A stretch of 64,000 bases of DNA from Planctomycetota bacterium. Its GTDB lineage: Bacteria > Planctomycetota > UBA8742 > UBA2392. Shown here in pieces: positions 3,642 through 49,710 of this stretch (position 1 is its first letter; every line of letters starts with the position of its first letter). Below the pieces are notes generated by a model, which worked only from the letters and a program-made list of their open reading frames with translations, did not search any database and was not told the DNA's origin. The stretch covers positions 2,849 through 66,848 of the forward strand of contig JADLFN010000072.1 in assembly GCA_020845475.1 (NCBI GenBank). Reading direction: 5' to 3'. A program made the position numbers and the translations under genes.

Positions 3642-3643
3642 GT

Positions 3644-4477: not shown

Positions 4478-5095
4478 TCAGCGCCTGAAAGCCTCGCGCG
4501 CATCAGCGAACTTGAACGTGACGTTGTACGCGCCCTCTCCGCGCTTCTTCCTATCGACGTTAATGGCGTTAGCGGCGTCGATTGCGAGCGACACAAAGGC
4601 CCACGGGGCCGTGCCTGATCTCGCACCCAAGGTCGCGTCCTTGGCAAAGCTGATTTCAAGTTTGTCAATCGTTGCGCCGCTTTGTGCGATGTACGAGAGG
4701 CACGCCTCTTTCAAGGCGGCATGCGTGCGGGCATAGATTTCGTGCTTGCGCGCAACCTCTGACGGCCCGTCCTGGTCCAGTGGCAGCAGTTCCGTCAGCG
4801 CCACCTGGGAATTGGCGACTGCTTTCCTTCCGCGCGCGCTGATTCCGATCGCGAATTGGCCCTGCGCGGCATCGGCGTCCCACTGGCAGTAAATCGTGAG
4901 CTGTTCCTGCGGCGCCGGCGGCTGGTCGGGTCGAAATCCTTCAGTCGTACTCAAATGAGGCTCAAAGCGGCGCTCTTCCTGCTTGAAGCGCGTGCAAACG
5001 ATGAAGAAGATGAGCAACTGAAACACACAGTCGATCATCGGCGTCATGTCAAAGCTGGGCAGGTTCGGGGCGCGGCGTCTCCGGTTTCTCGACAT
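4478..5095 (-). CDS. exbD: ExbD/TolR family biopolymer transport protein (paralog 3)
   Basis: PSFDMTPMIDCVFQLLIFFIV matches ExbD/TolR N-terminal TM signature; start trimmed to MSRNRRRR. Confidence 0.8.
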   Translation of the reverse strand: MSRNRRRRAPNLPSFDMTPMIDCVFQLLIFFIVCTRFKQEERRFEPHLSTTEGFRPDQPPAPQEQLTIYCQWDADAAQGQFAIGISARGRKAVANSQVALTELLPLDQDGPSEVARKHEIYARTHAALKEACLSYIAQSGATIDKLEISFAKDATLGARSGTAPWAFVSLAIDAANAINVDRKKRGEGAYNVTFKFADAREAFRR

Positions 5096-5207
5096 GGGAA
5101 TCTCCTTAAGAGTTTCCCCGGGATGCGCCTGCAAACGACGCGCTAAGGCACAGGTTCAATAGAAAAGCGCGGCCAGAATTGGCCGCGCCTTTGAAACGGG
5201 TTTGGAC

Positions 5208-5846
5208 TTACTTGCCGCCACCACCAGGCTTGGCGCCGGCATAGGCACCGCGAGCGTCCGAGAACTTGAATGTGACGCTCAATTCAGGCTGGCCCGCAGC
5301 CTTGCGCTTGGCGTTGATTTCAACGGAAGCGTCGATGGCAAGAGACACAAACATCCAGGGTGCAGTGCCGGAGCTTGCGCCGGAACGGGCGTCCTTGGCA
5401 AAGCTGATCTCGAGCTTCTCGATTTTGGCGCCGCTATCCTTGATGTACTGCTCGACTTTGGAGACCAGTGCGCCGTGCACTGAGCGATAGCGCTCCTTCT
5501 TTTCAGCAACGCCGCCCACGCCGTCTTTGTCGAACACGACGAGTTCCAGCAAGCCCATGCGCGAGTTCTCAACCACTTTGCGGCCGCGCGCGCCAATGGC
5601 CACGACGTACTGGTTGGTATTGTCGGCCTCGTTCCAGTCACAGTAGATCGTGATCTGTTCCTTGGGCACGGCGGGCGCTGTGCTCAGACCTTCATCAGTG
5701 GGCAAGTCGGCGCGCATGTTGCGCTCTTCTTGCTTGAAGCGCGTGCACACGATGAAAAAGATGAGCAACTGGAACACGCAATCGATCATGGGCGTCATGT
5801 CGAATGACGGCATGCTGTCCTTGCGTTTTCTCTTCTTGAGGGCCAT
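5208..5846 (-). CDS. exbD: ExbD/TolR family biopolymer transport protein (paralog 2)
   Basis: same FDMTPMIDCVFQLLIFFIVCT TM motif; divergent periplasmic domain. Confidence 0.8.
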   Translation of the reverse strand: MALKKRKRKDSMPSFDMTPMIDCVFQLLIFFIVCTRFKQEERNMRADLPTDEGLSTAPAVPKEQITIYCDWNEADNTNQYVVAIGARGRKVVENSRMGLLELVVFDKDGVGGVAEKKERYRSVHGALVSKVEQYIKDSGAKIEKLEISFAKDARSGASSGTAPWMFVSLAIDASVEINAKRKAAGQPELSVTFKFSDARGAYAGAKPGGGGK

Positions 5847-5857
5847 GTTCGCTCCGG

Positions 5858-6364
5858 TTACTGCGCCATGTCTTTGAGGACGTACACCTTGATCTTGTAC
5901 ATGCGAACTTCGACCATCAGTTCAATCAGCTGCGCGAAGTGACCTGCGGGACAACGCGCATCAACGCGAACCGCAATCAGGTTCTCGCTGCGGTTGTTTG
6001 CTTCACTCCAGCCTTCCAACTTGCGTGAAGGATCAACACGGCGCGCTTCCTGGCCCAGGATGGACTTCATTTCGTCGGGCGATTTGGGTGCCGGGTGCCC
6101 GTAGCAGAACCAGCCAAAATCCTTGGGCAGGTCTTCGTAGGCTCCCTGGTTAGCCGGCGCAATGTGAATGGTGAAAAGCTTCGGCGCCTGCTTGTCATCC
6201 TCGCTCGCCGAAATTGCGTCCGGCAGGCGCAGTGAAACGTTCTCCTGCTGCGTGATCTGCGTGCACACGATGAAAAAGATCAGCAACTGAAACACGCAGT
6301 CGATCATTGGCGTCATGTCAAAGCCAATAGGTGCGTTTTCAGTTTTCTTTCGATTCAGGGCCAT
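5858..6364 (-). CDS. exbD: ExbD/TolR family biopolymer transport protein (paralog 1)
   Basis: same TM motif, shorter periplasmic domain. Confidence 0.8.
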   Translation of the reverse strand: MALNRKKTENAPIGFDMTPMIDCVFQLLIFFIVCTQITQQENVSLRLPDAISASEDDKQAPKLFTIHIAPANQGAYEDLPKDFGWFCYGHPAPKSPDEMKSILGQEARRVDPSRKLEGWSEANNRSENLIAVRVDARCPAGHFAQLIELMVEVRMYKIKVYVLKDMAQ

Positions 6365-6419
6365 GGGCCACTCCCGTTCGGGCGTGGGGCGGGTGTTTCC
6401 CGCCCCACATAAACCTCAA

Positions 6420-7166
6420 TTAGCCCTGCTGCTGAGCCGCGTAGCCCGCGATCGTCTCGAGCATTTCGTCCACCACGAGCGACACGGAATTGACGATGTC
6501 ATTCGCGCGGTTCTTGAAGAACCAGTACGCGACAATGCCGGGAATCGCGATAACCAGGCCCACGACCGTTGACAGCAACGCCAGTGCGATACCGCCCGAA
6601 ACCATTTTCGGGTTGACCTGACCACCGGGCGCGTTCTCAATCGTCGCGAACGTATCCACCATGCCTGTCACCGTGCCGAACAGACCCATCATCGGGCCAA
6701 TGGCCACACAAACCGTGATTGGACCCAAATGGCGATCCAGCTTGTCTCCCTCGATACTGAACTGGAAACTTGCGGCGTCTTTGACCGCCGAGGGGCCGCT
6801 CTGAACCTTGTTCAAGCCCGCGCCGATGGTGCGGGTGAGCATGTTGGGCGCGCTCTCGCAGTACTGCAGCGCACCTTCAAGGTCGCCTTCATCGATGTAG
6901 TTCTGAAGCGCGGCAATGGTTTCTGGAGCGACCAGCTTGTCGCGGCGGACATTCACGAAACATTCAATGATCCAGCCGAACAGGAAGATTGAGGTCAGGA
7001 TGATCAGCGACTGCGTCAAAATTCCGAACCAGCCCGAGGGGATGCCGAGCAGTTTCTCGCCCAACGAGTAGCTCGGCGGATCTTCCGCGAAAAGGGCGGG
7101 CGCCAACACCGCCGCAAAGCCGAACGCAACAATCGTCAGCAACGCGTTTTTGTGCTTCAGGAACAT
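6420..7166 (-). CDS. exbB: MotA/TolQ/ExbB proton-channel family protein
   Basis: three TM helices, conserved C-terminal region (GIALALLSTVVGLVIAIPGIVAYWFFKNR) typical of ExbB/TolQ; immediately upstream of the three exbD genes. Confidence 0.85.
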   Translation of the reverse strand: MFLKHKNALLTIVAFGFAAVLAPALFAEDPPSYSLGEKLLGIPSGWFGILTQSLIILTSIFLFGWIIECFVNVRRDKLVAPETIAALQNYIDEGDLEGALQYCESAPNMLTRTIGAGLNKVQSGPSAVKDAASFQFSIEGDKLDRHLGPITVCVAIGPMMGLFGTVTGMVDTFATIENAPGGQVNPKMVSGGIALALLSTVVGLVIAIPGIVAYWFFKNRANDIVNSVSLVVDEMLETIAGYAAQQQG

Positions 7167-7291
7167 GTTTGCCTCTCAGGCAGGGTTTGAAAATGCGCCG
7201 GCTACGCACGCCGAAGCCGGAATCAAGTCAGGGTTAATCAGCTAAACGGGCGGCCCGAAGCGGGGTTCAAAAAATTCCCTTTGGCGATGCG

Positions 7292-8638
7292 CTACTTGAC
7301 CGTCTTGTAGGTGTCGATCAACTTCGTGATTTCCGGCAAAACAGAGCTGTTCGCCGCCTTGGTGCTGCCAAGCGTTGTGCGCAGCTCAAGCAGGTAAATT
7401 TCTCCCGCCATTGCATGCCTCGCGGCAGCGTCCTTTTCCTTGGTTCCCTTGGCCATCTCAGCGCAGGCCTTGGCGGCACCCAACAAAGCCTGACCACGGA
7501 ACTCGGCATCACCGGCGAACATGCCAATGGAGTTGGCAAAATACCGCAGGGCACCGGCCCACTCAGCGGCGGTCTTGGCGTTGCTGGCGGCAACCATGCC
7601 CAAGCCCAGATAACAGCCCGCAACTTCAAATGAACTGTCGGCGGTAATCCAGTTGTTCTTGGGCTGGTTCTTGTAGTCCTTTTGCTCGTTTTCCCATTCA
7701 CGAATGGGGCCCGAGAAACGGCCCTGGGCACCGCTTGCGTTGCCTTCCTCGATCATCAGCAATCCCACTTTGAGATTGGCTTCAATCGTCTCGCGGCTTT
7801 TCTTGCCGCCCGCGCGCAGCAGGGCCACGTCAGCGAGCTTGACATAAACCTCGCGCGTGCGCTTTGCGACGTCTTTTCGCTCGCCCTGCGAATTCTCGGC
7901 CACGGCGGCCGCTGCCTTGAGCGCGCGCAGGGCCCAATCGTAGTAGTTATACTTGCTCGACTTCTTGGCCAGGCTTGTTGTCAGTTCAACGAGCTTGTCG
8001 TAACCCTTTTTTGCGCCCTCTTCGGCACTGCCGGCGCGCACGTAGGATTCACCCAAACCCTCAAGTGCGTCAAGGTAGAGGCGGTGCAACAAACCGGCTT
8101 CTGCCACTTTGTTGCCCGTGGGCGAGTCAAACGCAACGCCCTTGACGAAGTTCTTGGGATTCCCCGCCTTGCCCTCGCCTTCTTTGGCCTGTGCTTCGCA
8201 CTCTTTGAGGTACTCAAGAAACGAAGACGCAGCGTCAGCGCTGCCCTGAAGAAGCTTTCCGCGGGCAACGTAATACAACGCTGTCAGCTTGATGCGGCGC
8301 TTGTCATCGTCTTCGAAATCTTTGCCGGGGTCGGAAACGTAGATGCCGGCGTCCTTTTCCAACACGTCGCCGCGACCGCTCAGTAGCTTCTTTGACAGGC
8401 TGTTGAACTGATCCATGCCCTTGTACGAATAGCGAACCTGGTCCACATCCCAGATTTCGATGCGAGTGCCGGATTGCTTGGCCGCGTCTTTCCATTCAAT
8501 GCCCGAAAGCGTCTCGGCATCGAGGGACTTGAAGGCCACTGCGTTTCCGTCTTTCTTGGCGACGGAGCCCTCCGGCCGTGCCGCGAACAGTGCCGGAGCC
8601 AGCAGAATCAGCGAAGCAAGCGTGAAGTAGCGAATCAT
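7292..8638 (-). CDS. secreted alpha-helical (TPR-like) repeat protein
   Basis: signal peptide MIRYFTLASLILLAPALFAA; helical repeat composition. Confidence 0.55.
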   Translation of the reverse strand: MIRYFTLASLILLAPALFAARPEGSVAKKDGNAVAFKSLDAETLSGIEWKDAAKQSGTRIEIWDVDQVRYSYKGMDQFNSLSKKLLSGRGDVLEKDAGIYVSDPGKDFEDDDKRRIKLTALYYVARGKLLQGSADAASSFLEYLKECEAQAKEGEGKAGNPKNFVKGVAFDSPTGNKVAEAGLLHRLYLDALEGLGESYVRAGSAEEGAKKGYDKLVELTTSLAKKSSKYNYYDWALRALKAAAAVAENSQGERKDVAKRTREVYVKLADVALLRAGGKKSRETIEANLKVGLLMIEEGNASGAQGRFSGPIREWENEQKDYKNQPKNNWITADSSFEVAGCYLGLGMVAASNAKTAAEWAGALRYFANSIGMFAGDAEFRGQALLGAAKACAEMAKGTKEKDAAARHAMAGEIYLLELRTTLGSTKAANSSVLPEITKLIDTYKTVK

Positions 8639-8654
8639 GGCTGTTCCCTTCCCC

Positions 8655-11600
8655 TTACTTGACCGTCAACTTGAGATCCTTGGCCCTGGCCAGCAGTGAA
8701 TCGGCGCAATCCTTGAGGCCCTTCTTGAACGTCTTTGTTTCGACATCGTCATAGCCGAGGCTGGCGAGGCTCTTGTTGCGGATGATGTCGAGCACCACCT
8801 GAACCTCGTCGCTCAGCTTCTTGAGCGAATCTACATCGACGAGATCCTTGATGCCTTCGCCGGCTTTGCCGTATTTCTTGAGCACGTCGATGGTCAAGTC
8901 GCCCCAGGCGCGCAGGCTCCGGCGCCACTCAGGGCGGAACGGGTGATCGTTCAATTGCGCAAAGCTCGTCCACTGGTCAAAGTGAATGCGACGGGCATGC
9001 CAGAGGTACTCCGCTTCGTTGGCCGGCATTTCCTGCATTTTGACTTTGCCGGACTTGGCGTCCTTGGCCTCGGGATCGAGCCAGATGTTGAACTGGTCAA
9101 CGAAGGGCGGGTAATCCACCTTGGGCGCCTTGAGCACATTGAGCTCAAGGTTGATTGCAATCAGAGTGTCAATGGTGTCGAGGTAGTAGAGTTCAATCTG
9201 CTCCTTGAAAGTCATCGTGAACGTTTTGCCCGAGCGCTGGTTCTTGCCCATCTCATTGGCGTTGCGCAGCAGCACAAAGCAATACGCGCGACGAATCAAA
9301 ACCGCCGCCTTCTTGAGGTTCTCAACGTCTTTGTTCTGTTTGTAGAGTTCAAAGTAAGAGCGTCCGAGCTGATACTTCAGCTCCAGCTCTTCACCGCTCT
9401 TGGTGTTGGCGTCCATCATGCCCTTGGCGGAGAGCCCGGCAGTCATGGACTGTTTGTTCACTGGAATGACGTTTTCGTTGACGAAGAAATTGTCCTTGCG
9501 CAGCAGGTCAAGGCAGCGCTGCAGATAGCCGGCCGCACGCTTGTAATCACGCACACGGAAGAAATTCTTGCCGACTACAAATTGAGAACGGGCCTCGGTG
9601 GCCTGCTGGTTTGCCTTTGTTTCCTGGTAGCGCTCGTAGTATGTCAGCACCTTGGTGAGCATCGGGCGCAGGCGCTCATCCAGGCCGGCGCTGGTTTCTT
9701 CCAGGAAGCCGCCAAATTCGTAAACAAACAGCGTGCCCGTGAAATAGCGCAGGTGCGAAGTATTCAGTGACACCTGGAGCGCCAGCGTTCCAAAGGGGCC
9801 TTCACCTTTGGCCTGCAACTTGTCCACGATTTCGGTGTTGCTGCCAGAGGCCACGAGCTTCTGGGCTTCCGTGCGAATAGCGTCGTAGCTCTTGTCCTTG
9901 ACCAGCGCGTCAAACTCGGCCTTCTGGGCCTCGCCCCAGCGCTTGGGGTACGACTCTGCGAACTCTTCCCACTTCTTCTTGAGTATCGGCAGCACCTCGG
10001 GCCCGACAGTCGCCGCCGGGAACTTCTTCGGATCGCCACCGAGCGTGCGTTCACTCATCCAGAACTTCCAGAAATAATCCGCCATGGCCTTGTCTTTGTC
10101 CAGCGTGGTCTTGGCGTCGGAGAATTTCTTGGCCGCGTCTTTGTCCTGAAGGAACATGGACTCGGTCTGGAACATGCCCAGCTTGAGCTGGTTGAACAGC
10201 GAGCGCAGATTGGTCGAAGCGCTGTTCAGCGCCTGAACCTTCGGGTCAAGCGTATCGAGATAAACGAGGTAGATCTGCGCGATGTAGTACGCGACTTTCT
10301 TCTTACCCTCGTCACTGCTGCCAAACGCGGCTTCATAAGCCTTGAGAATTGCCTCGCAGCCATCGCCGTCTTTTTCGTCGGCCAGGCAGCCGAAAGAGAG
10401 GTTCAACACGGCCTTCTGAACATCAACGTCTTCCTTGGGGAAGTGCGGGCCGAAAAGCTCCCAGTGCGATTTGAGAATGCGAAGTGCCGTCGGACGCCCG
10501 GCGTTGAGCACCGAAGTCATGTTCGGGTCGTTCTTGCGCGGGTTGCGCAGAAGATAAGCCAAACCGTAAGCGGCACGGCCCATGATTTGCAATTCTTCAT
10601 TCGGCTGTCGTGAACGCTCGGGTTGCGCGCGCCAGCGCTGGGCCATGCCGTCAGAAATCATCATGAACGCATCCACGAAATCGTGCTTCTTGACATCAAC
10701 AGAGTCTTTGACTTCTTCCCAGTTGCGAAGCACCACGAAAAGCATGTACTTCTTGAAGAAGTAAAGCGCCTTGTGCCAGATGGCGACATCGCCCTTGAGC
10801 GTTGCGTTGGCCATGGCTTCAAAGTGCGGTGTCTCAACGTTCTCCCACAGTTCTCTGGGAAGCGCGGCAAGATCTTCGCCGTGGCGACGTTTCATTTCTT
10901 CGAAGTACTGCCCGGACTCCTGCTCGAAATCTTCGCCCATGCGGCTGGGGTGGCGCGCCGTCTGGTCATCAAGCTGCGCCATGTAGGCGTTAGCCGCGTA
11001 ATAGAGCGCGAGGCGGAACTTCTTGTAAGTTGGAGGCAGTTTGGCAAAGCGCACCGCTGCGGGGCCGTATAACTTGCCGTTGTACTTTTCGCTGGCCTTG
11101 CCAAAGGCCTGATCGAGCTGGGCGTCCAAACCGCTGAAGAGCGCCTTCAGTTCGTCGGCCTCTTCTTTGATCTTGGCGAACTCGGCGTTCTTGGGATCGC
11201 CGAACTTCGAACTCACAAGCCACCCCGCAACTTTGGCGTAGGCTTTGGACATTTCCGCAGGGAAATCGTACACGGCCTTGGTGTCGACCATCAGGTCGCA
11301 AATGGGTGCGCCGCTCTTGTCCTTCATGTGGGCGGGAATCTCGATGCCCTTTTCCGGCGCGGTGTCGAAGTCCTTGCCGTACTTGCCGCGGAAATAGCCG
11401 GTGCGCAGGCAGGCCTCGCGGTAAATCATGGCCGCGTCCATGTAACGCTGCAGCAGGTCTGAGTAAATGAATCCCAGTTGACGGTAGCACTCGGGCGCAT
11501 AAGACTCAAACGCCTGGACGCTGTTGCACTGCGAGAGCAACACTTGATAAGCGCGCAGCACCTTGAAAATCGGCCCATAGCCGACTACGAGCGCATCCTT

Positions 11601-12734
11601 GAGCACGGCGCGACCGCACTGCAGGCGAGTTTCCGCATCCAGGCCTTCGGAGGCGCCGATGTCTGCAAGCACCGAAAGCGCCTGGCGTTTGAAATTGATG
11701 TCGTTCTCCTGCGCAAGCAGGAACAGATCGCTCAAGGCCACGGAGATGTTTCCACCGAGCTTGATCTGAGCGCCAATCTGGTAAAGCTTGAAGCGCTTGA
11801 ATTCGCTGGCGAGATCTTTGATACCACCGTAGCGCGAAGACGCCTTCTGGTACTGATCGACGCACATCTGAAGGTACTTTTTGTCGTAGCCAAGCTCGCT
11901 GGTCATGATCTCCGCGGCCTTTAACCAGCCGCGCAAAGCCTGGAAACCGATGTCGTAGCCCGGCGGGTAATCGCCCAGCTGGCTGGGAACTTCAAGGTAT
12001 TTCGCCACCGCACCTTCAAAGTTGCGCGACGCCCGCGCAACATCGCCGAGTAACAAGAGCGCGTCCACATACTCCACCGAGATCGGTAGCAGGAAAACTG
12101 CTTCGTTCACGGCGTCTTCACAGCGCTTGAAATGGTCGTTGCGATCCTTGCTGCCTTCAGCGAAGGTGAGGCCGTTGACGTAGTGTGCAACGCAGACGTT
12201 GTAAACACAGGTGCGATAGCGTGCGCCCTCCGCGGCAGCGAAAAACGCTTCGTCGCCCATTTGGCTGCGCGTGCTTTCAAGCAACTTCTGCTCGGCCTCA
12301 AGCACCTCCAGCGCCTTTCCAACGAGGCTGCGCGCACCTTCGGCGTCACTGCGGGCGCGGGCCTTTGCAATCTCCAGGCGCAGGACTGCGAGCTCGACCT
12401 TCTCAGCCGATTTTTCGGGGTCTCCGTATAGGCGCTCAGCCTTTTCGTAGCCTTCGTCGCGATCCTTTTCATTGCCGGACTTGAGGAAGTCGTCGTCGGC
12501 CTTGGCCTTGTACACGCGCGCCAGCGCAGACTTGGCCTTGGACTTCTCGGCGTCGCTGCCGCTATCCATTTGTTTGTTGAGAACGCGCTCGGCTTCTTCG
12601 TACATCTTCAGACGCACGCCGAGGTAGTAGCCGTACTCAGAAAGATCGCGAGCACCTGCCGCCGGTGCAAACGAGCATGCAGCCACCACAACGACCAAGC
12701 AGGACGCGACAAAGGAAAAAAGACGATTGGACAT
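8655..12734 (-). CDS. giant secreted TPR-like/alpha-helical repeat protein (~1360 aa)
   Basis: track ORF 8655..12995 trimmed to internal Met MSNRLFSFVASCLVVVVAACSFA (signal peptide); long helical-repeat composition. Confidence 0.6.
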   Translation of the reverse strand: MSNRLFSFVASCLVVVVAACSFAPAAGARDLSEYGYYLGVRLKMYEEAERVLNKQMDSGSDAEKSKAKSALARVYKAKADDDFLKSGNEKDRDEGYEKAERLYGDPEKSAEKVELAVLRLEIAKARARSDAEGARSLVGKALEVLEAEQKLLESTRSQMGDEAFFAAAEGARYRTCVYNVCVAHYVNGLTFAEGSKDRNDHFKRCEDAVNEAVFLLPISVEYVDALLLLGDVARASRNFEGAVAKYLEVPSQLGDYPPGYDIGFQALRGWLKAAEIMTSELGYDKKYLQMCVDQYQKASSRYGGIKDLASEFKRFKLYQIGAQIKLGGNISVALSDLFLLAQENDINFKRQALSVLADIGASEGLDAETRLQCGRAVLKDALVVGYGPIFKVLRAYQVLLSQCNSVQAFESYAPECYRQLGFIYSDLLQRYMDAAMIYREACLRTGYFRGKYGKDFDTAPEKGIEIPAHMKDKSGAPICDLMVDTKAVYDFPAEMSKAYAKVAGWLVSSKFGDPKNAEFAKIKEEADELKALFSGLDAQLDQAFGKASEKYNGKLYGPAAVRFAKLPPTYKKFRLALYYAANAYMAQLDDQTARHPSRMGEDFEQESGQYFEEMKRRHGEDLAALPRELWENVETPHFEAMANATLKGDVAIWHKALYFFKKYMLFVVLRNWEEVKDSVDVKKHDFVDAFMMISDGMAQRWRAQPERSRQPNEELQIMGRAAYGLAYLLRNPRKNDPNMTSVLNAGRPTALRILKSHWELFGPHFPKEDVDVQKAVLNLSFGCLADEKDGDGCEAILKAYEAAFGSSDEGKKKVAYYIAQIYLVYLDTLDPKVQALNSASTNLRSLFNQLKLGMFQTESMFLQDKDAAKKFSDAKTTLDKDKAMADYFWKFWMSERTLGGDPKKFPAATVGPEVLPILKKKWEEFAESYPKRWGEAQKAEFDALVKDKSYDAIRTEAQKLVASGSNTEIVDKLQAKGEGPFGTLALQVSLNTSHLRYFTGTLFVYEFGGFLEETSAGLDERLRPMLTKVLTYYERYQETKANQQATEARSQFVVGKNFFRVRDYKRAAGYLQRCLDLLRKDNFFVNENVIPVNKQSMTAGLSAKGMMDANTKSGEELELKYQLGRSYFELYKQNKDVENLKKAAVLIRRAYCFVLLRNANEMGKNQRSGKTFTMTFKEQIELYYLDTIDTLIAINLELNVLKAPKVDYPPFVDQFNIWLDPEAKDAKSGKVKMQEMPANEAEYLWHARRIHFDQWTSFAQLNDHPFRPEWRRSLRAWGDLTIDVLKKYGKAGEGIKDLVDVDSLKKLSDEVQVVLDIIRNKSLASLGYDDVETKTFKKGLKDCADSLLARAKDLKLTVK

Positions 12735-12879
12735 AGCAACGTCTCCGTGTTGCCTCGGAGTAAACGAGGTAGCTAACCTCGGTAGGGCCCAGTGAGCCGC
12801 GTTAGAGCGACTCGGTATAGCATCACTAACGCCTGAAACAACCCAAGGTTCGAATGAAGGACTCACCGCCCGCAACTGC

Positions 12880-12917
12880 AGCATCAAAACAAAGCCCCCG
12901 CAGACGCTGCGGGGGCT
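12880..12917 (-). terminator. Rho-independent terminator-like hairpin downstream of secretin gene
   Basis: perfect 10-11 bp GC-rich stem AGCCCCCGCAG/CTGCGGGGGCT followed on minus strand by UUGUUUUGAU. Confidence 0.6.
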
Positions 12918-12936
12918 TACCAACTTGCAGAAAAGT

Positions 12937-15639
12937 CTAGCGATCTTTCGGAGCGCTTGCACCGGATCCAAAGTTGTGGTCGATTTCCTCTTCAAGGTCG
13001 ATGATGCGGGCCGTGACGATGATGATCACGTCCTGACGAACCGTGCTCTTACCCTTACGCTTGAACAGTGAACCGATCAAAGGCAGGTCGGAGAGGATCG
13101 GAATGCCGCTTTCCACGTCAGTCTCGCTCATGGTGCGCATGCCGCCAATCACAAAGCTGCCGCCATCGGGCACGGTGACCGTGGTACGAATACGCTGCAA
13201 AGAGAGCTGCGGAGTCTGGATCGCAACCGGCGCGCCCACGCCGAGCGAAGTGGTGAACGTGGGAATCGGGCGCAGGAGGATGGCCAAAGTCGGGCGCAGC
13301 TCAAGCGTGATGTAACGGCGGTCAGCCGAAACCGTCGGACGCACGTCGAGCACGATACCGTCGCGGATGATGCTTACGACGGGGTCGGCCACGGCGATAC
13401 CCGTTGCAGTGCTGGTGTTGAAGTCCGAAATGTAAGCCACCTCGTTGAGCACGCTCACGTGCGCGCGCTGGGTGTTGTGAACTGTAACGCGAGGTGCCGT
13501 CAACAGCGTGGCACGTTCGCGCTTGCGCACGGCGCGGATGATGGCGTTGATCTCGGGGTTATCGACAAACGCGAGCTGGAAAGAAGCTCCGCCCGAGTTG
13601 GTCAAGCCCAAGCCGCCGCGCGTTCCGCCGAGCGCCTTGTCAAACAGGTTCTCAATGCGCGTGCGCTGGTCAATGCGCACGTTGCCCGAGGGCGGCATAT
13701 CCTGGAAGAACACACCGGCGTCGTTGCCCGTGCCACCGGGGCCGGCGGGATTGGCGTTGTTGCCGAACTGGATGTCGTCAAGCGCGGCCGGAACCGGAGG
13801 TGCGCCGGGCGGCGGAATCTGGGGGCTGCCACCGATGCCGCGGAAATCCAGGCCGATGTCCTCGAGGAAGTCGTCGCGAATCGTGATGAAGCGCGACTCC
13901 ACCGTCACGGTCAAGCCCTGCGAACGGCGCAGGTCATTGAGCAGTTGCGCCACCTTCTCAATGTTGTCCGGGTTGTTCAGGACAATCAGATCCTGCTGAC
14001 GCGTGGAAATACCGTGGCCTTCCTTCGACCACGAATCAGAATCAATGGACTGTTCAATCACGTCCTGCAGCTCGTCAATCGTCAGCGGCGTGGCGTCAGG
14101 AACATCTGTATCCGTACCGAAGCGATCGGTGTCCGTTTGATCGGTGCGCAGGCGCGGCTCATCGCCCTTGAACGTGCGCAGGTTGAGCAGCAAGTCCGCC
14201 ACGTTGAACACGCGGCGTGCCACGTTGCGGCCTTCATCCGAGCCCTTGGCGCCGATGATCACCGCGCCGTGCTGCACGCGCCATGAAAGATCGAGTGAGT
14301 CCGTGATCAGATTCAAGGCCTGGCGCAGTTTCACGCGGCCCACGTCCAGAGTAACCGTGCCATCGCCGGGAACGTCCTTGGCGCGCAACACGTTAATCTT
14401 GCCTTCCTGACGCAGGCGCTTGATTACGTCGTCAAGCGGCTGTTCTTCAAACGAAAGGTTCATGTCCACCGTGTCCAGCGCGCTGCGCACCGCGAGGTCT
14501 TCCTTCGAAAGCGGCGTGCGGCGGGAACGCTCGAGGCGATCCTGGCGATCGAGCGTGCGCTGCCAGTCTTCATAATCCGGCAGGGTTACATCGCCCGTGG
14601 GGAAAGAAGCCGCGTTCACCACCTGGGCCATGACCTGCTTCCAGTTGGAGTTGAAGGCTTCCCACGTGTCGCGGTCTTCTCGGCCGCGCTGCAGGTCGCG
14701 CGCGATGCCCTTGAGCTTGATGACATCCTGGTTGTAAGGATCTTCGCGCAGGATCTGGTTGAGCACGATGATCGTTTCGCCGTATTCACGGCGATCGAAA
14801 AATTCCTTGCTCTTGTTGTACAGGTTGCGGATCTGCTCGCGATAGCGGTTGAGCTCTTCCTGCATCTGCAGCTCGCGGATGCGGCGCTCCTGCTCCTGGG
14901 TGCTGACGTAATCCTTGACGCGGGCGTCTTCTCGCTTGCTGCGGGCTTCCTCGAGCATCAGGCGCGCTTCGCGCTCTTTGGCTTCAGTGTCAAGCATGTA
15001 GCCGGTCCAGCGGATGATGTCGAGAACCTTCTCGAGCTCATCCATGGCCTTGGTGTAATCACCGGCGCGAATCAGACGATCGGCGCGATCAAGACCTGCG
15101 TCGATTTCGTAAATCGCTTCGGCGCGCATCGCTTGATCTTCGTTGCTGCGGGCGCGCGAAATGTTCGCCGCCTCGCCGCGGCGCAGGCCAAGCAGGTTGG
15201 CGACATCATCGCGCACCTGGGCTGCGTTCTTGTTGTCTGGGTCCATCTCCAGCGCGTCGCTGGCGAGTTTGTAGGCCTTCTCGTAATTTGCGTTGCGGTA
15301 ATGCGTGTAGGCTTCATCGGCGTAATAATTCGCCAATGCCTTGATTTCGTCGGCGCTGGCCTTGTTGGAGGCGCCTGCGCCCGAACGGTTGCCGCGCTGA
15401 GCAACGGGCTCAGTCTTGCCTGCATCGGCTGCGTCCGGCTTGGCAGCCGATTCGCGATTGGTTTCGCGCGCAGGCTCACTCTTGCCGTTGGCGCGGAAGT
15501 CAGAAACGTAGTCGTCGCGGGTGGGTTTCACTTCAGCGTCAGCGGCCGGCTTCACCGAGGACGCGCAGGCGGCAATGAAACCAAAAGAAATGGCGGCGGC
15601 AACCAACGCAAAGCGCTTCTGAAGCCAAAGCTTCGTCAT
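12937..15639 (-). CDS. secretin (PilQ/GspD family) with long N-terminal TPR/coiled-coil extension
   Basis: C-terminal secretin signature ...TAPRVTVHNTQRAHVSV...VPDGGSFVIGGM...IPILSDLPLIGSLFKRKGKSTVRQDVIIIVTARII; start trimmed to MTKLWLQKRF signal sequence. Confidence 0.8.
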   Translation of the reverse strand: MTKLWLQKRFALVAAAISFGFIAACASSVKPAADAEVKPTRDDYVSDFRANGKSEPARETNRESAAKPDAADAGKTEPVAQRGNRSGAGASNKASADEIKALANYYADEAYTHYRNANYEKAYKLASDALEMDPDNKNAAQVRDDVANLLGLRRGEAANISRARSNEDQAMRAEAIYEIDAGLDRADRLIRAGDYTKAMDELEKVLDIIRWTGYMLDTEAKEREARLMLEEARSKREDARVKDYVSTQEQERRIRELQMQEELNRYREQIRNLYNKSKEFFDRREYGETIIVLNQILREDPYNQDVIKLKGIARDLQRGREDRDTWEAFNSNWKQVMAQVVNAASFPTGDVTLPDYEDWQRTLDRQDRLERSRRTPLSKEDLAVRSALDTVDMNLSFEEQPLDDVIKRLRQEGKINVLRAKDVPGDGTVTLDVGRVKLRQALNLITDSLDLSWRVQHGAVIIGAKGSDEGRNVARRVFNVADLLLNLRTFKGDEPRLRTDQTDTDRFGTDTDVPDATPLTIDELQDVIEQSIDSDSWSKEGHGISTRQQDLIVLNNPDNIEKVAQLLNDLRRSQGLTVTVESRFITIRDDFLEDIGLDFRGIGGSPQIPPPGAPPVPAALDDIQFGNNANPAGPGGTGNDAGVFFQDMPPSGNVRIDQRTRIENLFDKALGGTRGGLGLTNSGGASFQLAFVDNPEINAIIRAVRKRERATLLTAPRVTVHNTQRAHVSVLNEVAYISDFNTSTATGIAVADPVVSIIRDGIVLDVRPTVSADRRYITLELRPTLAILLRPIPTFTTSLGVGAPVAIQTPQLSLQRIRTTVTVPDGGSFVIGGMRTMSETDVESGIPILSDLPLIGSLFKRKGKSTVRQDVIIIVTARIIDLEEEIDHNFGSGASAPKDR

Positions 15640-15822
15640 AATTGCTCCACAGCGTCGGGGTAGATGGGGACGCGGGAAGAGGGGATCTGCTTGTCGGGGG
15701 CGATGTAAGTGTAACGGAGACAAGGGGTGTGTCAACAGCCAAAGTTTCAGGCCCATAAATCGAAGCTGGGGTTGATGCCTGGACGGCACCAACCCCAGAG
15801 TCTCGCGAGACTTCAGAAGGTG

Positions 15823-17760
15823 CTACTTGTCAACGTAGTAAACGCCCCAGATGTCCATTTTGCCTTCGCCCATGTCGAGCGTTCGCTTTTCGATACCTCC
15901 GTAAATCAGGCCGGTCTCCATGCTGATGGCGCGCAGGCCGAGCTTGTCGGCGTCAGCAGGCACGCCACCGTCGTCAAAGAACTGGATCATGTCCTTGCCC
16001 AGTCCGCCAATGGCAGCCTCGGCATAGCCCACGGTGTCTCCCTTTTTCACGTCCTGGTATGCAACGATCCGGTACCACTGGTTGCCGACTTGCGTCCAGC
16101 GCGTGATCTCAAAGCGAGCGCTGGCGCCACCCTTGCCGACGCAGATCACGCGAACGCCGAGCGGATTGGCCATGCCGCTGGGGTCAACGTTGGCCGCAGT
16201 CGCGGGATCTTTGGTATCGCGCGGCAGCACGAACCTCAATGCGCTGCCTTTCTGTCCAAACTCCATATCAGAGCCCGTGAACTGGTTGAAAATCCATCCC
16301 GTGGCGAAATCCAGAACGTCGCCGGAGGCTTCCAGCGCCTTGTACCACTCAGCGTTGGCTTTGCCTTCTGCGTCAACGACGGCGATCTCATAGCCGCGTC
16401 CCTTCAGAGCTGAGGCCTTGCCGCTCGCGCCGACTTCCTCGCCCTGGCCGACGCTGACAATCACTTCGACCGCACGCCACACGCCACCAATGGGATGGAA
16501 CTTGCGCAACTTGATGCGCGCAAGGTCGGATTTGCCCAGCCAGGACATCTGAATGCGGTTGAAGACAACAACGGGGCGGCCTGCCATTACAGCCGCGTCG
16601 CTGGTATGGTAATCGGCCGCGAAAGTATCGTCGCTCTTGATGCCTTCCTTGAGCTTGCTCTTGGTCGTGGCGCGCACTGCGTAAACGTAAGTGTATTCAG
16701 CCTTGAAGCTAACGTCGGCGAACGTGAGTTCCGTCAGGGGCGTATCGTTGAGACGCTCCCACTCACTGGGCCTGGGCGGCGCAACAGGTTTGACGCGGCC
16801 CTTGGGATCCTTTTCAAAGTCGGGTTCCGACTTGCCTCCATTGCCGGGCAGTGCCTGCCATGCTATGAAATCCTTCCTCCATGCGTCTTCCTTCTTGCGA
16901 TGGGCCGGAAGGTCAACCGTGTTGTAGCGTAGCTCACGGTCCTTTATGTCTGCTTTACTCTTGCGCATGACCCAATAACCCAGGTCAGCCGGAGCATCCT
17001 TCAGGCTCGGTGCCGTCCAGCTCACGTTGATCACGAAGGACTTGGCGTCTGCGGCGGCTTTTACGTCGACCGGAGGCGCGAGGTCGGCGTCAGGGTTCAC
17101 TGTCGGACGAGCGCCGTATTCCACTCGATCCAGGAACTTGTCTTTGTTTTTGTCCTTGTCTTCGAAGTCCGTGTTGCCCGTGCCATTCTCATACTCGACG
17201 CGCGAGAGCTTGCCGTCTTCGTTCGTATCATACTTGTCGAAATCGATGTCCTGTGCGCTCGGATTTGTGTCGTACTCCGTCTTCGTCAGATAGCCGTCCT
17301 TGTTGGTGTCCAGCGTACGGAACTTGATTCCGTCAAGCGACTTCTGCGTGTTGGCATACTCGGCTGGGCTCAGGCGGCCGTCTCCGTCTGCATCACTTCC
17401 TTTAAAGTCGGGTGCTCCGACAGGCGCCTCCAGAAACACACGGAACTGAGTAGGCAGGTCAAGAATCTTGTGCTCATCGGCGATCCTGGACGGAATCTTG
17501 CCGCCCTTCACCACGCCAAAAGCCTGATCTGCGCCGTTGAGACCCTCCGCGGAGAACGCAGGTACGGCTGCGGAAGGCTTGGGGTCGTTCAACTTGCTGT
17601 TAACTTGTGACACAGCGTCGTCAATCTTGCGCTTGGGCGCTTCTGTGTCGCCCAGCACGACTGCGAGCAACACGAACACCACCATCAACAGGCCGCCGCC
17701 GATCCAGGCCGCCATCGGGCCGAACTTGATGAGCGCGCTTTCGTTGGGTGCTTCCGCCAT
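15823..17760 (-). CDS. bitopic membrane protein with four EF-hand-type Ca-binding loops
   Basis: N-terminal TM helix; DADGDGRLSPAEY, DTNKDGYLTKTEY, DTNEDGKLSRVEY, DKDKNKDKFLDRVEY loops. Confidence 0.6.
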   Translation of the reverse strand: MAEAPNESALIKFGPMAAWIGGGLLMVVFVLLAVVLGDTEAPKRKIDDAVSQVNSKLNDPKPSAAVPAFSAEGLNGADQAFGVVKGGKIPSRIADEHKILDLPTQFRVFLEAPVGAPDFKGSDADGDGRLSPAEYANTQKSLDGIKFRTLDTNKDGYLTKTEYDTNPSAQDIDFDKYDTNEDGKLSRVEYENGTGNTDFEDKDKNKDKFLDRVEYGARPTVNPDADLAPPVDVKAAADAKSFVINVSWTAPSLKDAPADLGYWVMRKSKADIKDRELRYNTVDLPAHRKKEDAWRKDFIAWQALPGNGGKSEPDFEKDPKGRVKPVAPPRPSEWERLNDTPLTELTFADVSFKAEYTYVYAVRATTKSKLKEGIKSDDTFAADYHTSDAAVMAGRPVVVFNRIQMSWLGKSDLARIKLRKFHPIGGVWRAVEVIVSVGQGEEVGASGKASALKGRGYEIAVVDAEGKANAEWYKALEASGDVLDFATGWIFNQFTGSDMEFGQKGSALRFVLPRDTKDPATAANVDPSGMANPLGVRVICVGKGGASARFEITRWTQVGNQWYRIVAYQDVKKGDTVGYAEAAIGGLGKDMIQFFDDGGVPADADKLGLRAISMETGLIYGGIEKRTLDMGEGKMDIWGVYYVDK

Positions 17761-17815
17761 GACTGATCTCCACTGCCGATGATGTTCGATGCCTGCCGTT
17801 CAAAAATGCGCCGCG

Positions 17816-18877
17816 CTACTCAGCCGCTGTTGCCGCCGGCTTGGCGATCGCCTTCCAGTCCGGGTTGGCGCGAAGGGCAAACAACTTCAGGTCGTAACGC
17901 AACGGATGGCTGAAGACGAGCTTCTTCTCAAGGTCCGCTGCCACCGCCGCGCGCTTGCCGCTGGAACCGTTTTCGTCCATGCGGTTGGGCTCTTCGTCCT
18001 CGAGCCAGTCCTTTGGAATCTCCCACGCGCCGCGCTCAGCGTTGGTTACTTTGTACTGCGCCACATGAACACGCTCGGGCTGAACGCCCATGAGCGAAAC
18101 CAACGCAAAAGGAAGGCCGTCACGCTTGCCGTCACCCGTGCCCACCGTGGCTTCCGTGGGGCTGAGCAACGCGTCCAGCAATGCAAGACTGAAAGCGGGG
18201 TCCGCATCAAAGCTGAATGTGAACTCGTGCTTGAGCCAGGCTTCCTTGGGATCAGACGCGGCTTCCTGATTAAAGGCGCCGAACTCGAACTTGCGGAACA
18301 GGAACGATGAGCCCTTGAACTCGGCGCTGTTGAGCAGTTTCTCGCACGCGATGCAGACCTCGCGAATAACTTTCAGGCGTGCCTGGGCCTTTGGAATCTC
18401 GGCCGCCTGAAGGCGCTCGCGGCTCATTTCACCCTGCAGCGCAATCCAGAAGTTCTCTGACTCATCTTCTTCCTGGAAGCGTCCGCCCGCAGCAGCAAGC
18501 TTCTCCGGAATTCCGGAGACGTTCTTGAGGCGCGCAAACCGGCCTTTGAGCGCGGGGATTTCCTTGGAGGCCACTTCCGTGTTGAAGTCGTCGCTTGATG
18601 TGAACGTTTTCGTGAATTCAAAGAGTTTGGCGCCTGTTCCCTTTACCAGAGCGTCTTCCATTCCTTTGACTTCAGAAACGAACTTCTGCTGTGAGCCTTC
18701 GACGGCTTTGATGTCTCCGGCGGTAGGCACACCGGACTTCAAGGCGCCTTCCACCTGGGCGGCAGACTGATTTAACTTTTCTTCCGCGCCGGTCTTGGAG
18801 AGCACGCCCACGGCCATCATGACGATGCCCAGAAGGCCCAGCACACCCAGCAGAATGAAATGTAGAGAATCTTTCAT
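17816..18877 (-). CDS. bitopic membrane protein with periplasmic coiled coil (PilO-like position)
   Basis: single N-terminal TM (FILLGVLGLLGIVMMAVGVL) then helical region; sits between PilM-PilN fusion and secretin. Confidence 0.5.
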   Translation of the reverse strand: MKDSLHFILLGVLGLLGIVMMAVGVLSKTGAEEKLNQSAAQVEGALKSGVPTAGDIKAVEGSQQKFVSEVKGMEDALVKGTGAKLFEFTKTFTSSDDFNTEVASKEIPALKGRFARLKNVSGIPEKLAAAGGRFQEEDESENFWIALQGEMSRERLQAAEIPKAQARLKVIREVCIACEKLLNSAEFKGSSFLFRKFEFGAFNQEAASDPKEAWLKHEFTFSFDADPAFSLALLDALLSPTEATVGTGDGKRDGLPFALVSLMGVQPERVHVAQYKVTNAERGAWEIPKDWLEDEEPNRMDENGSSGKRAAVAADLEKKLVFSHPLRYDLKLFALRANPDWKAIAKPAATAAE

Positions 18878-18888
18878 GGTCGGGCCTC

Positions 18889-20940
18889 TTACTTCTGTTC
18901 TGCCGCGGGCGGCATCTCGATGGGCGAAAGTGAAACGGTGACCTGCACCCGGAACGGAGAAACGTAGCGCTTCAACGGCGTGGGCTTGGTTGCACCGAAA
19001 TTGTTACCGAGCAACGTGCGCACACCGACAGCCTTGTCCGCTTCCATGGAAACGTTGTCATAGGCCGTCTTGACCGTAAGCCCTGACCACTTGATCGCGC
19101 CGATTTCCGCTTCGCTCAAATCCTTCAACTGGCCGCGTACTTTCAACTCAGCGAGCAACGCAGCCTTTAACTTCGCATGCAGGAGACCGCCGTTGCCCTC
19201 GCTGCCGCCGACGAGATCGAACTCCGCTTTGTCGTAGGGCTCGCGCAGGCGCTGTTCCGTGGGTGCCGCGCGCTCCGTGCCCATGACCAGTCCCGACAGG
19301 GATGCCTCATAGCGGAATTCGCGCTTTACGGTGTGATAGCCGGATTGTTCTGCGGCGTCCGCCCCTGCCTCGCCCAATTGCACCCAGTTGCTCTCATTGG
19401 TGCTGGGCTTGATCATGAGCGCGATTTCTCCACCGCTCTCGGCCAGTTTGTTTACACGGAAATACTGGTGTTCCGGTGTAGCCTTGGCGAATTCCACAAG
19501 CGCTTCATCTGTGACACGCGCGATCAGTCCAGGCAAAATTGCCGCCGGCAACTCCAGGTGGCGCGTGACCTTGACGGCCTCTCCACCTTCGGCGGCGGGA
19601 GGAATCGTGTGCTCGGTGGAACCTACACGCCCCACCGTGACGTTGCGCAGACTCAAAGCCAGGAGCGCATTGGCGTCATTGGCCTGGGCCGCGGTGACCT
19701 TGGCTTTGGCCGCCGTGACGTCACCGGCTGATTTCGTCGCGGCTGCGGTTTTATCGTCCACTCCGCCACCGGCGCTGATACCAAGCAGCATGGCAACAAG
19801 ACCGCCGGCGAAAATCATGCCGCCCGCGGCGATCATGGGAACCTTGAGCCGCGCTTTGGCGCGGGCTTCAAGCCGCTCACGCGGCATCAGGTTAATGGTG
19901 TTCAGACCGGCGACACCGAGACCTTCAAGCGCAAGGCCGATGGCGACGGTGAGGCTCTGGATGTTGTCCTGAACCTCGGCGGGATCAACGCTGCGCGAAA
20001 GCTGCATGCGTGCGGGCGTTTCAACCTTGTGAACCTTGTATTGAAGCTGCTGCTCAAAGAACTTCTGGATGTTGATGAGCTTGGAGCCGTTGCCCATCAT
20101 CACCAGCTGGTTGATATTGGCGGCTTCATTCTGGCTCTTGTAGAAGCCCACCGCGCGGTAGATTTCGCCCACCATTTCCTTCAACGGCGGCTTCATGGCT
20201 TCGAAGACTGCCGCCGCGTCCTTGCTCTTGGCCGCGCGGCGCTTGAGTTTTTCGGCGTCATCGTCAGAAAGCTTGAAGCGCGCCTTGAGGGCTTTGGTGA
20301 TGTCGTTGCCGGCCACGGGCACCACGCGCACGTATGTCTTCTGGCCGTCGATGACAACGAGGTCGGTGTTCTCGGCTCCGATATCGATGGCGACGCAGCA
20401 GTTGGAAATGCCCTCGTCCAATTCAAACTTGACGTAGTTGTAGATACCCAGCGGTGCGACCTGAATGCCGGTGATTTCGAGGTTGGCGCTTTCGCACGCA
20501 TCGACGATTTCTTCAACGGCCTGGCGCTTGGCTGCGTAAAGGTTGACTTTGCGCTCATCGACTGCGCCGGGATCGTCGATCGTCTGGTAATCCCACACCG
20601 CCTGTTCCAGCGGAATCGGCACCTGTGACTTGGCCTCGTTCTCGATCGTCTCGCGAACCTTTTCGTCAGAAACCGGCGGCAGGCTGATAATGCGGCCGAG
20701 GGTGTTCTGACCCTTGATCGAGACGTAAACAACGTCGCCGCTCTTGACGCCATTCGCCACTCGGAAGGCACTGAGCGCCGCAGCCGTGGCGTCATTGACG
20801 CTCGTGCCGCTGCCCAACCCGTAATCGGAGAGGCTGATGATGGAAATCGCGTCAATGGTGACGGAACCGCGGTCTTCACTCAGTCGGACCGCTTTGATGC
20901 TCGATGTGCCGAGCTCAATACCCCAAGCTGTTTTCGCCAT
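18889..20940 (-). CDS. pilM: type IV pilus-like assembly protein, PilM (actin-fold ATPase) fused to PilN-like bitopic domain with extended periplasmic C-terminus
   Basis: N-term WGIELGTSSIKAV and actin-fold PilM similarity; residue ~355 INLMPRERLEARAKARL + TM helix resembles PilN N-terminus; start trimmed to MAKTAWG with GAGGAA RBS. Confidence 0.75.
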   Translation of the reverse strand: MAKTAWGIELGTSSIKAVRLSEDRGSVTIDAISIISLSDYGLGSGTSVNDATAAALSAFRVANGVKSGDVVYVSIKGQNTLGRIISLPPVSDEKVRETIENEAKSQVPIPLEQAVWDYQTIDDPGAVDERKVNLYAAKRQAVEEIVDACESANLEITGIQVAPLGIYNYVKFELDEGISNCCVAIDIGAENTDLVVIDGQKTYVRVVPVAGNDITKALKARFKLSDDDAEKLKRRAAKSKDAAAVFEAMKPPLKEMVGEIYRAVGFYKSQNEAANINQLVMMGNGSKLINIQKFFEQQLQYKVHKVETPARMQLSRSVDPAEVQDNIQSLTVAIGLALEGLGVAGLNTINLMPRERLEARAKARLKVPMIAAGGMIFAGGLVAMLLGISAGGGVDDKTAAATKSAGDVTAAKAKVTAAQANDANALLALSLRNVTVGRVGSTEHTIPPAAEGGEAVKVTRHLELPAAILPGLIARVTDEALVEFAKATPEHQYFRVNKLAESGGEIALMIKPSTNESNWVQLGEAGADAAEQSGYHTVKREFRYEASLSGLVMGTERAAPTEQRLREPYDKAEFDLVGGSEGNGGLLHAKLKAALLAELKVRGQLKDLSEAEIGAIKWSGLTVKTAYDNVSMEADKAVGVRTLLGNNFGATKPTPLKRYVSPFRVQVTVSLSPIEMPPAAEQK

Positions 20941-21093
20941 GGATTCCTCAGGTACTGCGCCGCGCATCCGGCGTTTTGGGCCAGAATCAGCTATCGCTTC
21001 AACGGCACGAAGCTGCCAAAAATGAGTGGCAGCGCGTCGCGCGAAACAGGAACCTTGGGGGTAGCCATAGCATGGCCAAGGCTTGCGCCGAAA

Positions 21094-49634: not shown

Positions 49635-49710
49635 TGGTGGGCGTAGAGGGATTCGAACCCCCAACATCCTGCGTGTAAGGCAGGCGCTCTAACCGTTGAG
49701 CTATACGCCC
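49635..49710 (-). tRNA. tRNA-Val (anticodon TAC), CCA encoded
   Basis: revcomp GGGCGTATAGCTCAACGGTTAGAGCGCCTGCCTTACACGCAGGATGTTGGGGGTTCGAATCCCTCTACGCCCACCA; cloverleaf with GTTCGAATC T-loop; anticodon loop CTTACAC. Confidence 0.85.

Follow-up and report, generated by a model that had tools for sequence, protein, structure and literature searches.

What do a type IV pilus-style secretin scaffold and an ExbB/ExbD proton channel do when their genes lie end to end on one strand? We addressed this question for a block of genes in a contig from an uncultured Planctomycetota lineage, taking as the window the whole 64-kb stretch of DNA that was analyzed, whose positions are used throughout. The ORF (open reading frame) list of the window contains ten minus-strand ORFs in succession, spanning 4478 to 20967, as an initial annotation of the DNA had described. 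That annotation took them for an undescribed secretin machine coupled to ExbB/ExbD and driven by proton-motive force (PMF). The coupled machine is plausible and the block is conserved, with the PMF drive read from domain content; however, the description as undescribed did not hold, because the MUL2 and MUL1 loci of Akkermansia muciniphila are closely analogous. Our preferred reading, to which we give about even weight, is that the block specifies a single trans-envelope machine of the MUL2 plus MUL1 kind, probably for macromolecule import. The genes, in the order in which they would be transcribed, are as follows.

18889 to 20940, minus strand: PilM fusion, a 692-aa ORF with a PilM actin-like domain, one transmembrane (TM) helix, and a periplasmic region of ~300 aa

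17816 to 18877, minus strand: p353, a 353-aa bitopic protein in the PilO position, with an N-terminal TM helix, long helices, and then an alpha/beta region

15823 to 17760, minus strand: EF-hand protein, a 645-aa bitopic protein in the PilP position with four EF-hand calcium loops

12937 to 15639, minus strand: secretin lipoprotein of 900 aa, with an N-terminal TPR/coiled-coil extension, STN, N-domains, and a C-terminal secretin domain

8655 to 12734, minus strand: giant, a secreted protein of 1359 aa from a rare family, with a signal peptide and no Pfam match above threshold

7292 to 8638, minus strand: p448, a secreted protein of 448 aa with a signal peptide and no Pfam match

6420 to 7166, minus strand: ExbB/TolQ-type subunit, with a signal-like N-terminal segment and three further hydrophobic helices

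5858 to 6364, minus strand: short ExbD of 168 aa with the full canonical domain

5208 to 5846, minus strand: long ExbD of 212 aa, with a TM segment carrying the conserved Asp and a non-ExbD-like periplasmic alpha/beta domain

4478 to 5095, minus strand: second long ExbD of 205 aa (the same call is made in near-identical contigs), 57% identical to the first

Pfam matches were judged against curated cut-offs, NCBIfam matches were judged against that database's family or equivalog cut-offs, and topology was taken from a hydropathy scan. Using these thresholds, the PilM fusion matched PilM_2 (PF11104) at 137 bits over residues 16 to 348 (cut-off, 27) and passed TIGR01175 at 150.5 bits (cut-off, 133). 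Its ORF reaches 20967, translation probably starts from the Met at 20940, and the tblastn alignments of relatives begin at residues 7 to 10. The TM helix was placed at residues 374 to 392. Thus, the predicted PilM-PilN fusion has its PilM domain, its single TM helix, and ~300 periplasmic residues, whereas no PilN profile matched and the PilN label is a positional one. The top NCBIfam match was Amuc_1101_fam, at 197.8 bits (E = 3.6e-58) over residues 62 to 431, which leaves the periplasmic part unmatched. The secretin call passed clearly, with Pfam Secretin (PF00263) at 106 bits against a cut-off of 27.5, and here, too, the top NCBIfam match was an Akkermansia model, Amuc_1098_fam, at 121 bits, mostly over the C-terminal secretin domain. 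Both scores are far under the cut-offs of those families (650 and 750 bits, respectively). The MshL and PilQ models scored the same secretin at ~107 bits, PilQ TIGR02515 reaching 106.9 bits under its cut-off of 284. The protein carries a lipoprotein signal with the lipobox FIAAC, a TPR_14 match of 26 bits, and an STN match of 24.9 bits that is under the 28.4 cut-off. An N-terminal extension of ~600 aa had been proposed; the extension exists, but it measures ~420 aa to STN and ~700 aa to the secretin domain.

The two bitopic proteins between PilM and the secretin are less familiar. Four EF-hand calcium loops had been predicted in the 645-aa protein, and the call was confirmed: EF-hand_5 matched at 41.9 bits (cut-off, 25.9; E = 5.4e-11), four loops of the DxDxDG type are visible in the window's sequence, EF-hand families matched in 17 of 17 members of the protein family, and the family profile matches EF-hand proteins of the PDB with E values of ~1e-6. 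Past the EF-hands (alignment columns ~240 to 460), this protein has an FN3-like signature (…VTW…P…, …TYTYAV…) that is split by a variable helical insert, and its C-terminal region is beta-rich, conserved, and matched by no profile. The p353 protein had no Pfam or NCBIfam match, either as the window protein at E values of ≤0.01 or across 18 family members at E values of ≤0.1. In the same databases, PilN, PilO, and PilP profiles matched none of the three bitopic proteins of the window at E values of ≤0.01 and none of the 18 p353-family and 17 EF-hand-family members at E values of ≤0.1. The description of p353 as PilO-like therefore stands for its bitopic topology and its position and fails for its profile. 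A sequence link of p353 to Amuc_1100, which we take to be among the solved structures in the PDB, was sought among PDB sequences; the single sequence gave no match, and the 18-member profile matched no chain at an E value of <3. The AlphaFold2 single-sequence model of p353 (predicted local distance difference test score [pLDDT], 38.6) was too poor for a fold search. As a separate observation, three residues at the cytoplasmic edge of the p353 TM helix, K2, L5, and H6 (residues 1 to 6 lie at 18860 to 18877), are the same in all 18 family members. The His recalls TonB H20 and TolA H22, and the complete SHLS motif is absent.

We next compared this scaffold with the type IVa pilus PilMNOPQ proteins. 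The order and topology are the same, with a cytoplasmic PilM, bitopic inner-membrane proteins, and an outer-membrane secretin, and this holds for the MSHA system as well. In the MSHA series MshI-MshJ-MshK-MshL, MshI is itself a PilM-PilN fusion. PilM, which passes TIGR01175, and the clear secretin domain are points of likeness. The window differs in that no PilN, PilO, or PilP profile matches, one protein carries EF-hands, an ExbBD module lies next to the scaffold, the periplasmic parts are much larger (~300, ~325, and ~610 aa), and the secretin, a lipoprotein, has a TPR extension fused to it. PilB, PilT, PilC, and pilins were predicted to be missing, and none of their Pfam domains was detected in the flanking or other large ORFs of the 64-kb window or, using a near-identical contig, in the ~6 kb past its left end. 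From this absence it had been argued that ExbBD is the only energy transducer encoded. That argument is weak, since, to our knowledge, canonical pilMNOPQ operons never encode PilB, PilT, PilC, or pilins. The absence is expected if the block consists of two ordinary neighboring systems, namely, a pilMNOPQ-like subcomplex with PilB, PilC, PilT, and pilins encoded elsewhere and a divergent Tol- or Ton-like module with its own role, for example in nutrient uptake or in maintaining the outer membrane. We regard this alternative as the main rival and a serious one, though less likely than a single machine. The failure of PilN, PilO, and PilP profiles on all three bitopic proteins speaks against its first half, as does the PilM fusion, which scores higher on the Akkermansia MUL2 model than on the generic PilM model.

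The second half of the two-system alternative depends on the ExbB and ExbD genes. One ExbB and three ExbD proteins had been called, and all four calls were above Pfam cut-offs: MotA_ExbB matched at 88 bits (cut-off, 22.9), and the ExbD proteins matched Pfam ExbD at 59.6, 46.8, and 34.6 bits (cut-off, 25.4). The short ExbD covers profile positions 8 to 124 of 128. The long ExbD matches the profile over its TM part only and aligns to the short type over its first 41 to 49 residues, and the second long ExbD, which gave the 34.6-bit score, likewise matches with its N-terminal part only. All three proteins share a stretch of 21 identical residues, FDMTPMIDCVFQLLIFFIVCT, whose Asp is invariant in 121 homologues, and the DNA for this stretch differs synonymously between the copies. 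An AlphaFold model of the long ExbD, made with 121 sequences, reached a pLDDT of 81.6 and has a periplasmic alpha/beta domain; no ExbD/TolR chain was among its top 60 matches, and Foldseek returned nothing significant.

Like the Ton and Tol-Pal systems, the window thus has a MotA/ExbB channel with ExbD/TolR subunits that carry a TM Asp, and as in Tol-Pal, where CpoB is a TPR protein, helical-repeat periplasmic proteins are encoded alongside. Unlike those systems, it lacks TonB, TolA, TolB, and Pal. Two of its three ExbD paralogues carry a periplasmic domain unlike that of ExbD, and neither the TolQ nor the ExbB NCBIfam equivalog model comes near its cut-off on the window's ExbB. No TonB, TolA, TolB, or Pal domain was found by Pfam or NCBIfam in the cluster or its flanks, and neither TonB_C nor TonB-dependent receptors were found there or in the other large ORFs of the window. 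The ExbBD motor therefore has no conventional client at this locus, and a secretin, in place of TonB-dependent receptors, is linked to the module. This absence in and beside the cluster argues against a Tol- or Ton-like neighbor system.

The number of ExbD genes varies. Between 1 and 4 copies were detected per relative, and in four genomes (L015, L017, L024, and L025, at ~16300 to 18800 in each) the order is short-long-short-long. Because short-long pairs look duplicated in these four relatives, we infer, as a hint, that one short and one long ExbD may form a unit inside ExbB. In the subclade of the window, the short ExbD has the same TM helix as the long paralogues (DMTPMIDCVFQLLIFFIVCT; window positions 5721 to 5846, 6239 to 6364, and 4970 to 5095). 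In the other subclade (compared loci, L012 to L028), the short-ExbD TM helix differs at ~5 to 6 positions (…VVFQLIIFFMVVT). Since the short type equals the long type in one subclade only, the sequences suggest concerted evolution or gene conversion of the ExbD TM segment there. One MAG, compared at L009:7597-10591 (JADLAK010000044.1) and L027 (JADLAK010000103.1) of the same assembly, has only one short and one long ExbD in the cluster and elsewhere carries an extra long-type ExbD beside a 779-aa protein with no Pfam match.

One ExbB-like subunit with several ExbD-like subunits is also found in a motor of another kind. In Myxococcus xanthus, one TolQ/ExbB-like subunit and several TolR/ExbD-like subunits (AglR/AglQ/AglS) power a gliding complex with TPR proteins and envelope-spanning Glt proteins that is neither Ton nor Tol. 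The likeness of the window to Agl-Glt is one of general architecture, and the window has a secretin and a PilM scaffold in place of detected Glt homologues. A further alternative is one machine in which a PMF motor extrudes or translocates a fibre, an adhesin, or a polysaccharide through the secretin, or serves motility, in the manner of AglRQS-Glt or of GldLM of type IX secretion. Secretins normally pass material outwards, so the direction would be the usual one. The conservation of the block counts for this alternative as it does for an importer, and periplasmic EF-hands could tie assembly to calcium. On the other side, neither the cluster nor its conserved flanks contain a gene for a pilin, a fibre subunit, an adhesin, or polysaccharide synthesis, no Glt- or Gld-type domain was found using Pfam and NCBIfam, and the closest characterized analogue, the Akkermansia MUL system, is linked to import. 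We regard an outward or motility machine as improbable.

The giant and p448 occupy the middle of the block. They had been described as two secreted TPR giants. Both have signal peptides, but the TPR label fails Pfam thresholds for both: the giant's sole match was TPR_7, whose 19.5 bits fall short of the 27.9 cut-off, and the p448 family profile gave weak TPR matches (CTPR, E = 0.0025; CpoB, E = 0.03). The touch on CpoB, a Tol-associated TPR protein, is a small point for the two-system alternative. The giant family is rare. When 1.84 billion representatives were searched exhaustively with phmmer, 31 relatives were returned at E values of ≤0.001, and a word-indexed search found 8. For distant loci of the family, two metagenome scans gave none and a profile search gave only two proteins. 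No internal paralogy was found among the large proteins.

To place the block in a wider context, relatives were collected by a scan with the giant alignment, keeping one genome per species. This gave 20 loci, 19 titled as Planctomycetota metagenome-assembled genomes (MAGs) and 1 as an uncultured bacterium. The order PilM fusion, p353, EF-hand protein, secretin, giant, p448, ExbB, and then two to four ExbD genes was recovered by tblastn in essentially all of these ~20 species-level loci, so the gene order proposed for checking does recur in related genomes. Identities to the window proteins are 32 to 57% for the giant, 25 to 47% for p353, and 26 to 46% for the EF-hand protein; the secretin (64 to 81%) and ExbB (65 to 88%) are closer. 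A 191-kb contig assigned by binning to Planctomycetota g_UBA2392 encodes an identical ExbB protein, as do several metagenome contigs that keep the same neighbors. Upstream of the PilM gene, from which a uracil-DNA glycosylase (UDG) gene is separated by ~125 nt, DHH, p190, and UDG are found in the window and in the relative closest to it, and RpiB and DUF6687 in the other subclade. This exchange of neighbors indicates that the upstream boundary of the block is real, as judged from the gene maps. That ~20 species-level MAGs keep the full order at low identity while the upstream flank changes argues for a single machine.

Two far lineages extend this comparison. Every locus, distant L030 and L031 among them, has a p448 homologue following the giant. 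In L031, a secretin of the same subfamily, 47% identical with the N-terminal extension included, lies directly upstream of the giant (22%) and a p448-like gene; neither ExbBD nor a PilM gene adjoins the pair, and all other neighbors differ. In L030, only the giant and the p448-like gene are together. Because the pair stays together in both lineages, giant and p448 appear to be the core of the system. The link between this pair and the secretin thus seems to survive deep divergence, and the ExbBD link is documented within the clade of ~20 species only. The adjacency of secretin, giant, and p448 in L031, at 22% identity of the giant and with every other neighbor replaced, favors one machine and runs counter to two independent neighbor systems. 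The same two lineages also provide support for two systems, since ExbBD is unlinked to giant and p448 in both.

The spacing and the RNA signals of the block were also reconsidered. Gaps of 2 to 125 nt and a single hairpin terminator had been reported. Neither description held. In near-identical contigs, the gene-caller starts give a secretin of 900 aa and a giant of 1352 to 1359 aa, and because both start later than the longest ORFs, two of the gaps measure ~183 and ~202 nt. Each of these two large gaps holds one strong GC-rich minus-strand hairpin.

15766 to 15798, minus strand: 14-bp GC-rich hairpin after the EF-hand gene; comparable hairpins of other sequence are there in 15 relatives

12892 to 12918, minus strand: intrinsic-terminator-like hairpin of 12 bp with 9 GC pairs, followed by the T-run TTTGTTTTG; located after the secretin stop codon

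A sigma-70-like TTGACA-16-TACACT lies at 15735 to 15708, between the first hairpin and the secretin start. A GC-rich hairpin was present at the position after the secretin in 17 of 17 relatives examined. More broadly, perfect GC-rich hairpins with stems of 10 to 14 bp follow the EF-hand gene and the secretin in nearly all relatives (L007 to L031), and several relatives have a GC-rich hairpin after p448. At a given position, the sequences are unrelated between relatives, and many have no clear U-tail; the recurring hairpins may for that reason act in attenuation or mRNA stability instead of as full terminators. With hairpins recurring at these three sites, the block is probably a conserved train of three or four transcription units and not one plain operon. 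Between the secretin and the giant, the window and every relative examined have a strong terminator-like hairpin and a gap of ~200 nt, as would be expected for two neighboring systems. Taken together, the initial annotation was partly confirmed: its genes and main domain calls stand, and its PilN, PilO, and TPR labels, hairpin count, and gap sizes do not.

The closest described counterpart of the block is in A. muciniphila. MUL2 comprises Amuc_1098 to Amuc_1102, from the secretin Amuc_1098 (97.5 kDa) through the PilM-like Amuc_1101 to Amuc_1102; Amuc_1100 is a 34-kDa protein with a membrane prediction. MUL1 comprises Amuc_0543 to Amuc_0550, and its content was pieced together here from a proteomics supplement and a transcriptome paper. 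It includes the uncharacterized 37-kDa protein Amuc_0543, the 121-kDa TPR_2 repeat protein Amuc_0544 (Mul1A), Amuc_0546, annotated as a biopolymer transporter, and Amuc_0547, an ExbD. Import of mucin into internal compartments requires both MUL1 and MUL2, and a recent paper states that characterizing the MUL mechanism would be "paradigm shifting." A 2026 study found aquatic Akkermansiaceae without MUL1 synteny and suggested that MUL1 is a gut-specific adaptation.

The order Amuc_1101, Amuc_1100, Amuc_1099, Amuc_1098 parallels that of PilM fusion, p353, EF-hand protein, and secretin. Amuc_1101 is PilM-like with a membrane anchor, Amuc_1100 is bitopic and of ~34 kDa, in comparison with the 353-aa bitopic protein of the window, Amuc_1099 is a further protein without characterization, and the window's PilM fusion and secretin have the Amuc_1101 and Amuc_1098 models as their top NCBIfam matches. 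The two loci also differ: the third gene of the window carries EF-hands, and the pilin-like gene Amuc_1102 (MUL2A), upstream of PilM in Akkermansia, has no counterpart in the window, where UDG takes that place, or in the relatives that have DUF6687 there. For MUL1, Amuc_0544, Amuc_0543, and Amuc_0546/Amuc_0547 parallel the giant, p448, and ExbB/ExbD, a likeness drawn from their descriptions. In the window, the large and small periplasmic proteins seem to come in the opposite order, and there are three ExbD proteins, two with a periplasmic domain that is not ExbD-like. The MUL modules lie at separate loci in Akkermansia, whereas those of the window are contiguous. Akkermansia, like the host of the window, belongs to the Planctomycetes-Verrucomicrobia-Chlamydiae (PVC) group, in which polymers accumulate in the periplasm. 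Homology to Akkermansia is supported for PilM, the secretin, and ExbB/ExbD; the giant, p448, and p353 are likened by architecture.

These parallels suggest how a single machine might be built. Module A would be a type IV pilus-style scaffold and channel, made of PilM with its membrane anchor, the two bitopic proteins, one of them with EF-hands, and the secretin, whose N-terminal TPR lipoprotein extension may stand in for a separate pilotin. Module B would be a PMF motor of ExbB with short and long ExbD proteins that share a near-identical TM helix with a protonatable Asp. The giant and p448, periplasmic and helical, would take the place of TonB or TolA and pass the work of the motor to the secretin or to its cargo. 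The most likely job would be binding of glycans or glycoproteins at the surface and their import into the periplasm. Domain content, topology, the conserved linkage, and the rarity of the giant family are observations; we infer the physical coupling of the two modules, the dependence on PMF, the ExbD heterodimers, and the direction of transport.

Several lines of evidence lead us to prefer one MUL-like machine. In addition to the conserved order and the L031 adjacency, the PilM fusion scores more on Amuc_1101_fam than on generic PilM and the secretin has Amuc_1098_fam as its top match, MUL1 has parts of the module B type, the MUL genes are needed for mucin import, and the TM segment of ExbD, with its Asp, varies little or not at all. 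That both kinds of modules serve one phenotype in Akkermansia also disfavors two unrelated neighbors. Import is the likeliest task; it fits this phenotype as well as the unexplained "selfish" uptake of polysaccharides by Planctomycetota, a process whose mechanism the literature calls unknown.

Other observations weigh against this preferred reading. Part of the conservation of the block may be inherited synteny rather than selection, because the downstream metabolic genes are equally syntenic across the clade: an inositol-1-phosphate synthase gene, LDH, and rhodanese are conserved there, together with the YdjY-like and 354-aa genes listed below. The equal synteny of this flank also suits two neighboring systems. 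ExbBD does not adjoin giant and p448 in L030 or L031, nor does the secretin in one of these, and the terminator-like hairpins cut the block into three or four units. With respect to Akkermansia, no Amuc_1102-like pilin gene was found in the window locus, the p353 profile does not match Amuc_1100 among PDB sequences, and no sequence relation to characterized proteins was detected for p353, the giant, p448, or the EF-hand protein outside its EF-hands. An Akkermansia relative of the giant close enough for phmmer seems unlikely, given that only 31 relatives were found.

A broader proposal builds on the preferred reading, and we put it forward tentatively, as rather less probable than not. The block would be the machine of "selfish" polymer uptake into the enlarged periplasm of Planctomycetota and of the wider PVC group: a secretin-gated import conduit on a PilM scaffold, driven by an ExbB-ExbD proton motor instead of a pilus ATPase, in which heterodimers of short and long ExbD act on two periplasmic helical proteins that replace TonB. 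The question addressed is how large glycans and glycoproteins pass the outer membrane of PVC bacteria. The occurrence of MUL2-like and MUL1-like modules joined at one locus, in another phylum, appears to be new in the searchable literature. The joined locus in environmental Planctomycetota would provide independent genomic evidence that both modules form one machine. It would also point to a design that predates the gut setting and is more widespread, reaching beyond gut Verrucomicrobiota. It also makes the giant, p448, the long ExbD, and the EF-hand protein named candidates for parts of a PMF-driven import secretin.

Two further genes follow the last ExbD in essentially all relatives.

3644 to 4405, minus strand: YdjY-like lipoprotein, downstream of the last ExbD (this gene and the next together span 2577 to 4405; the inositol-1-phosphate synthase gene that follows lies at 1347 to 2534)

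2577 to 3641, minus strand: 354-aa Ala-rich protein with two TM helices, downstream of the YdjY-like gene

Whether these two proteins are members of the machine is uncertain. The 354-aa protein was considered as a TolA/TonB-like transducer and set aside, as its family alignment gave no supporting motif. Rfam gave no match inside the cluster. The sole Rfam or ARAGORN match in the 64 kb is a single tRNA-Val(TAC) at 49635 to 49710.

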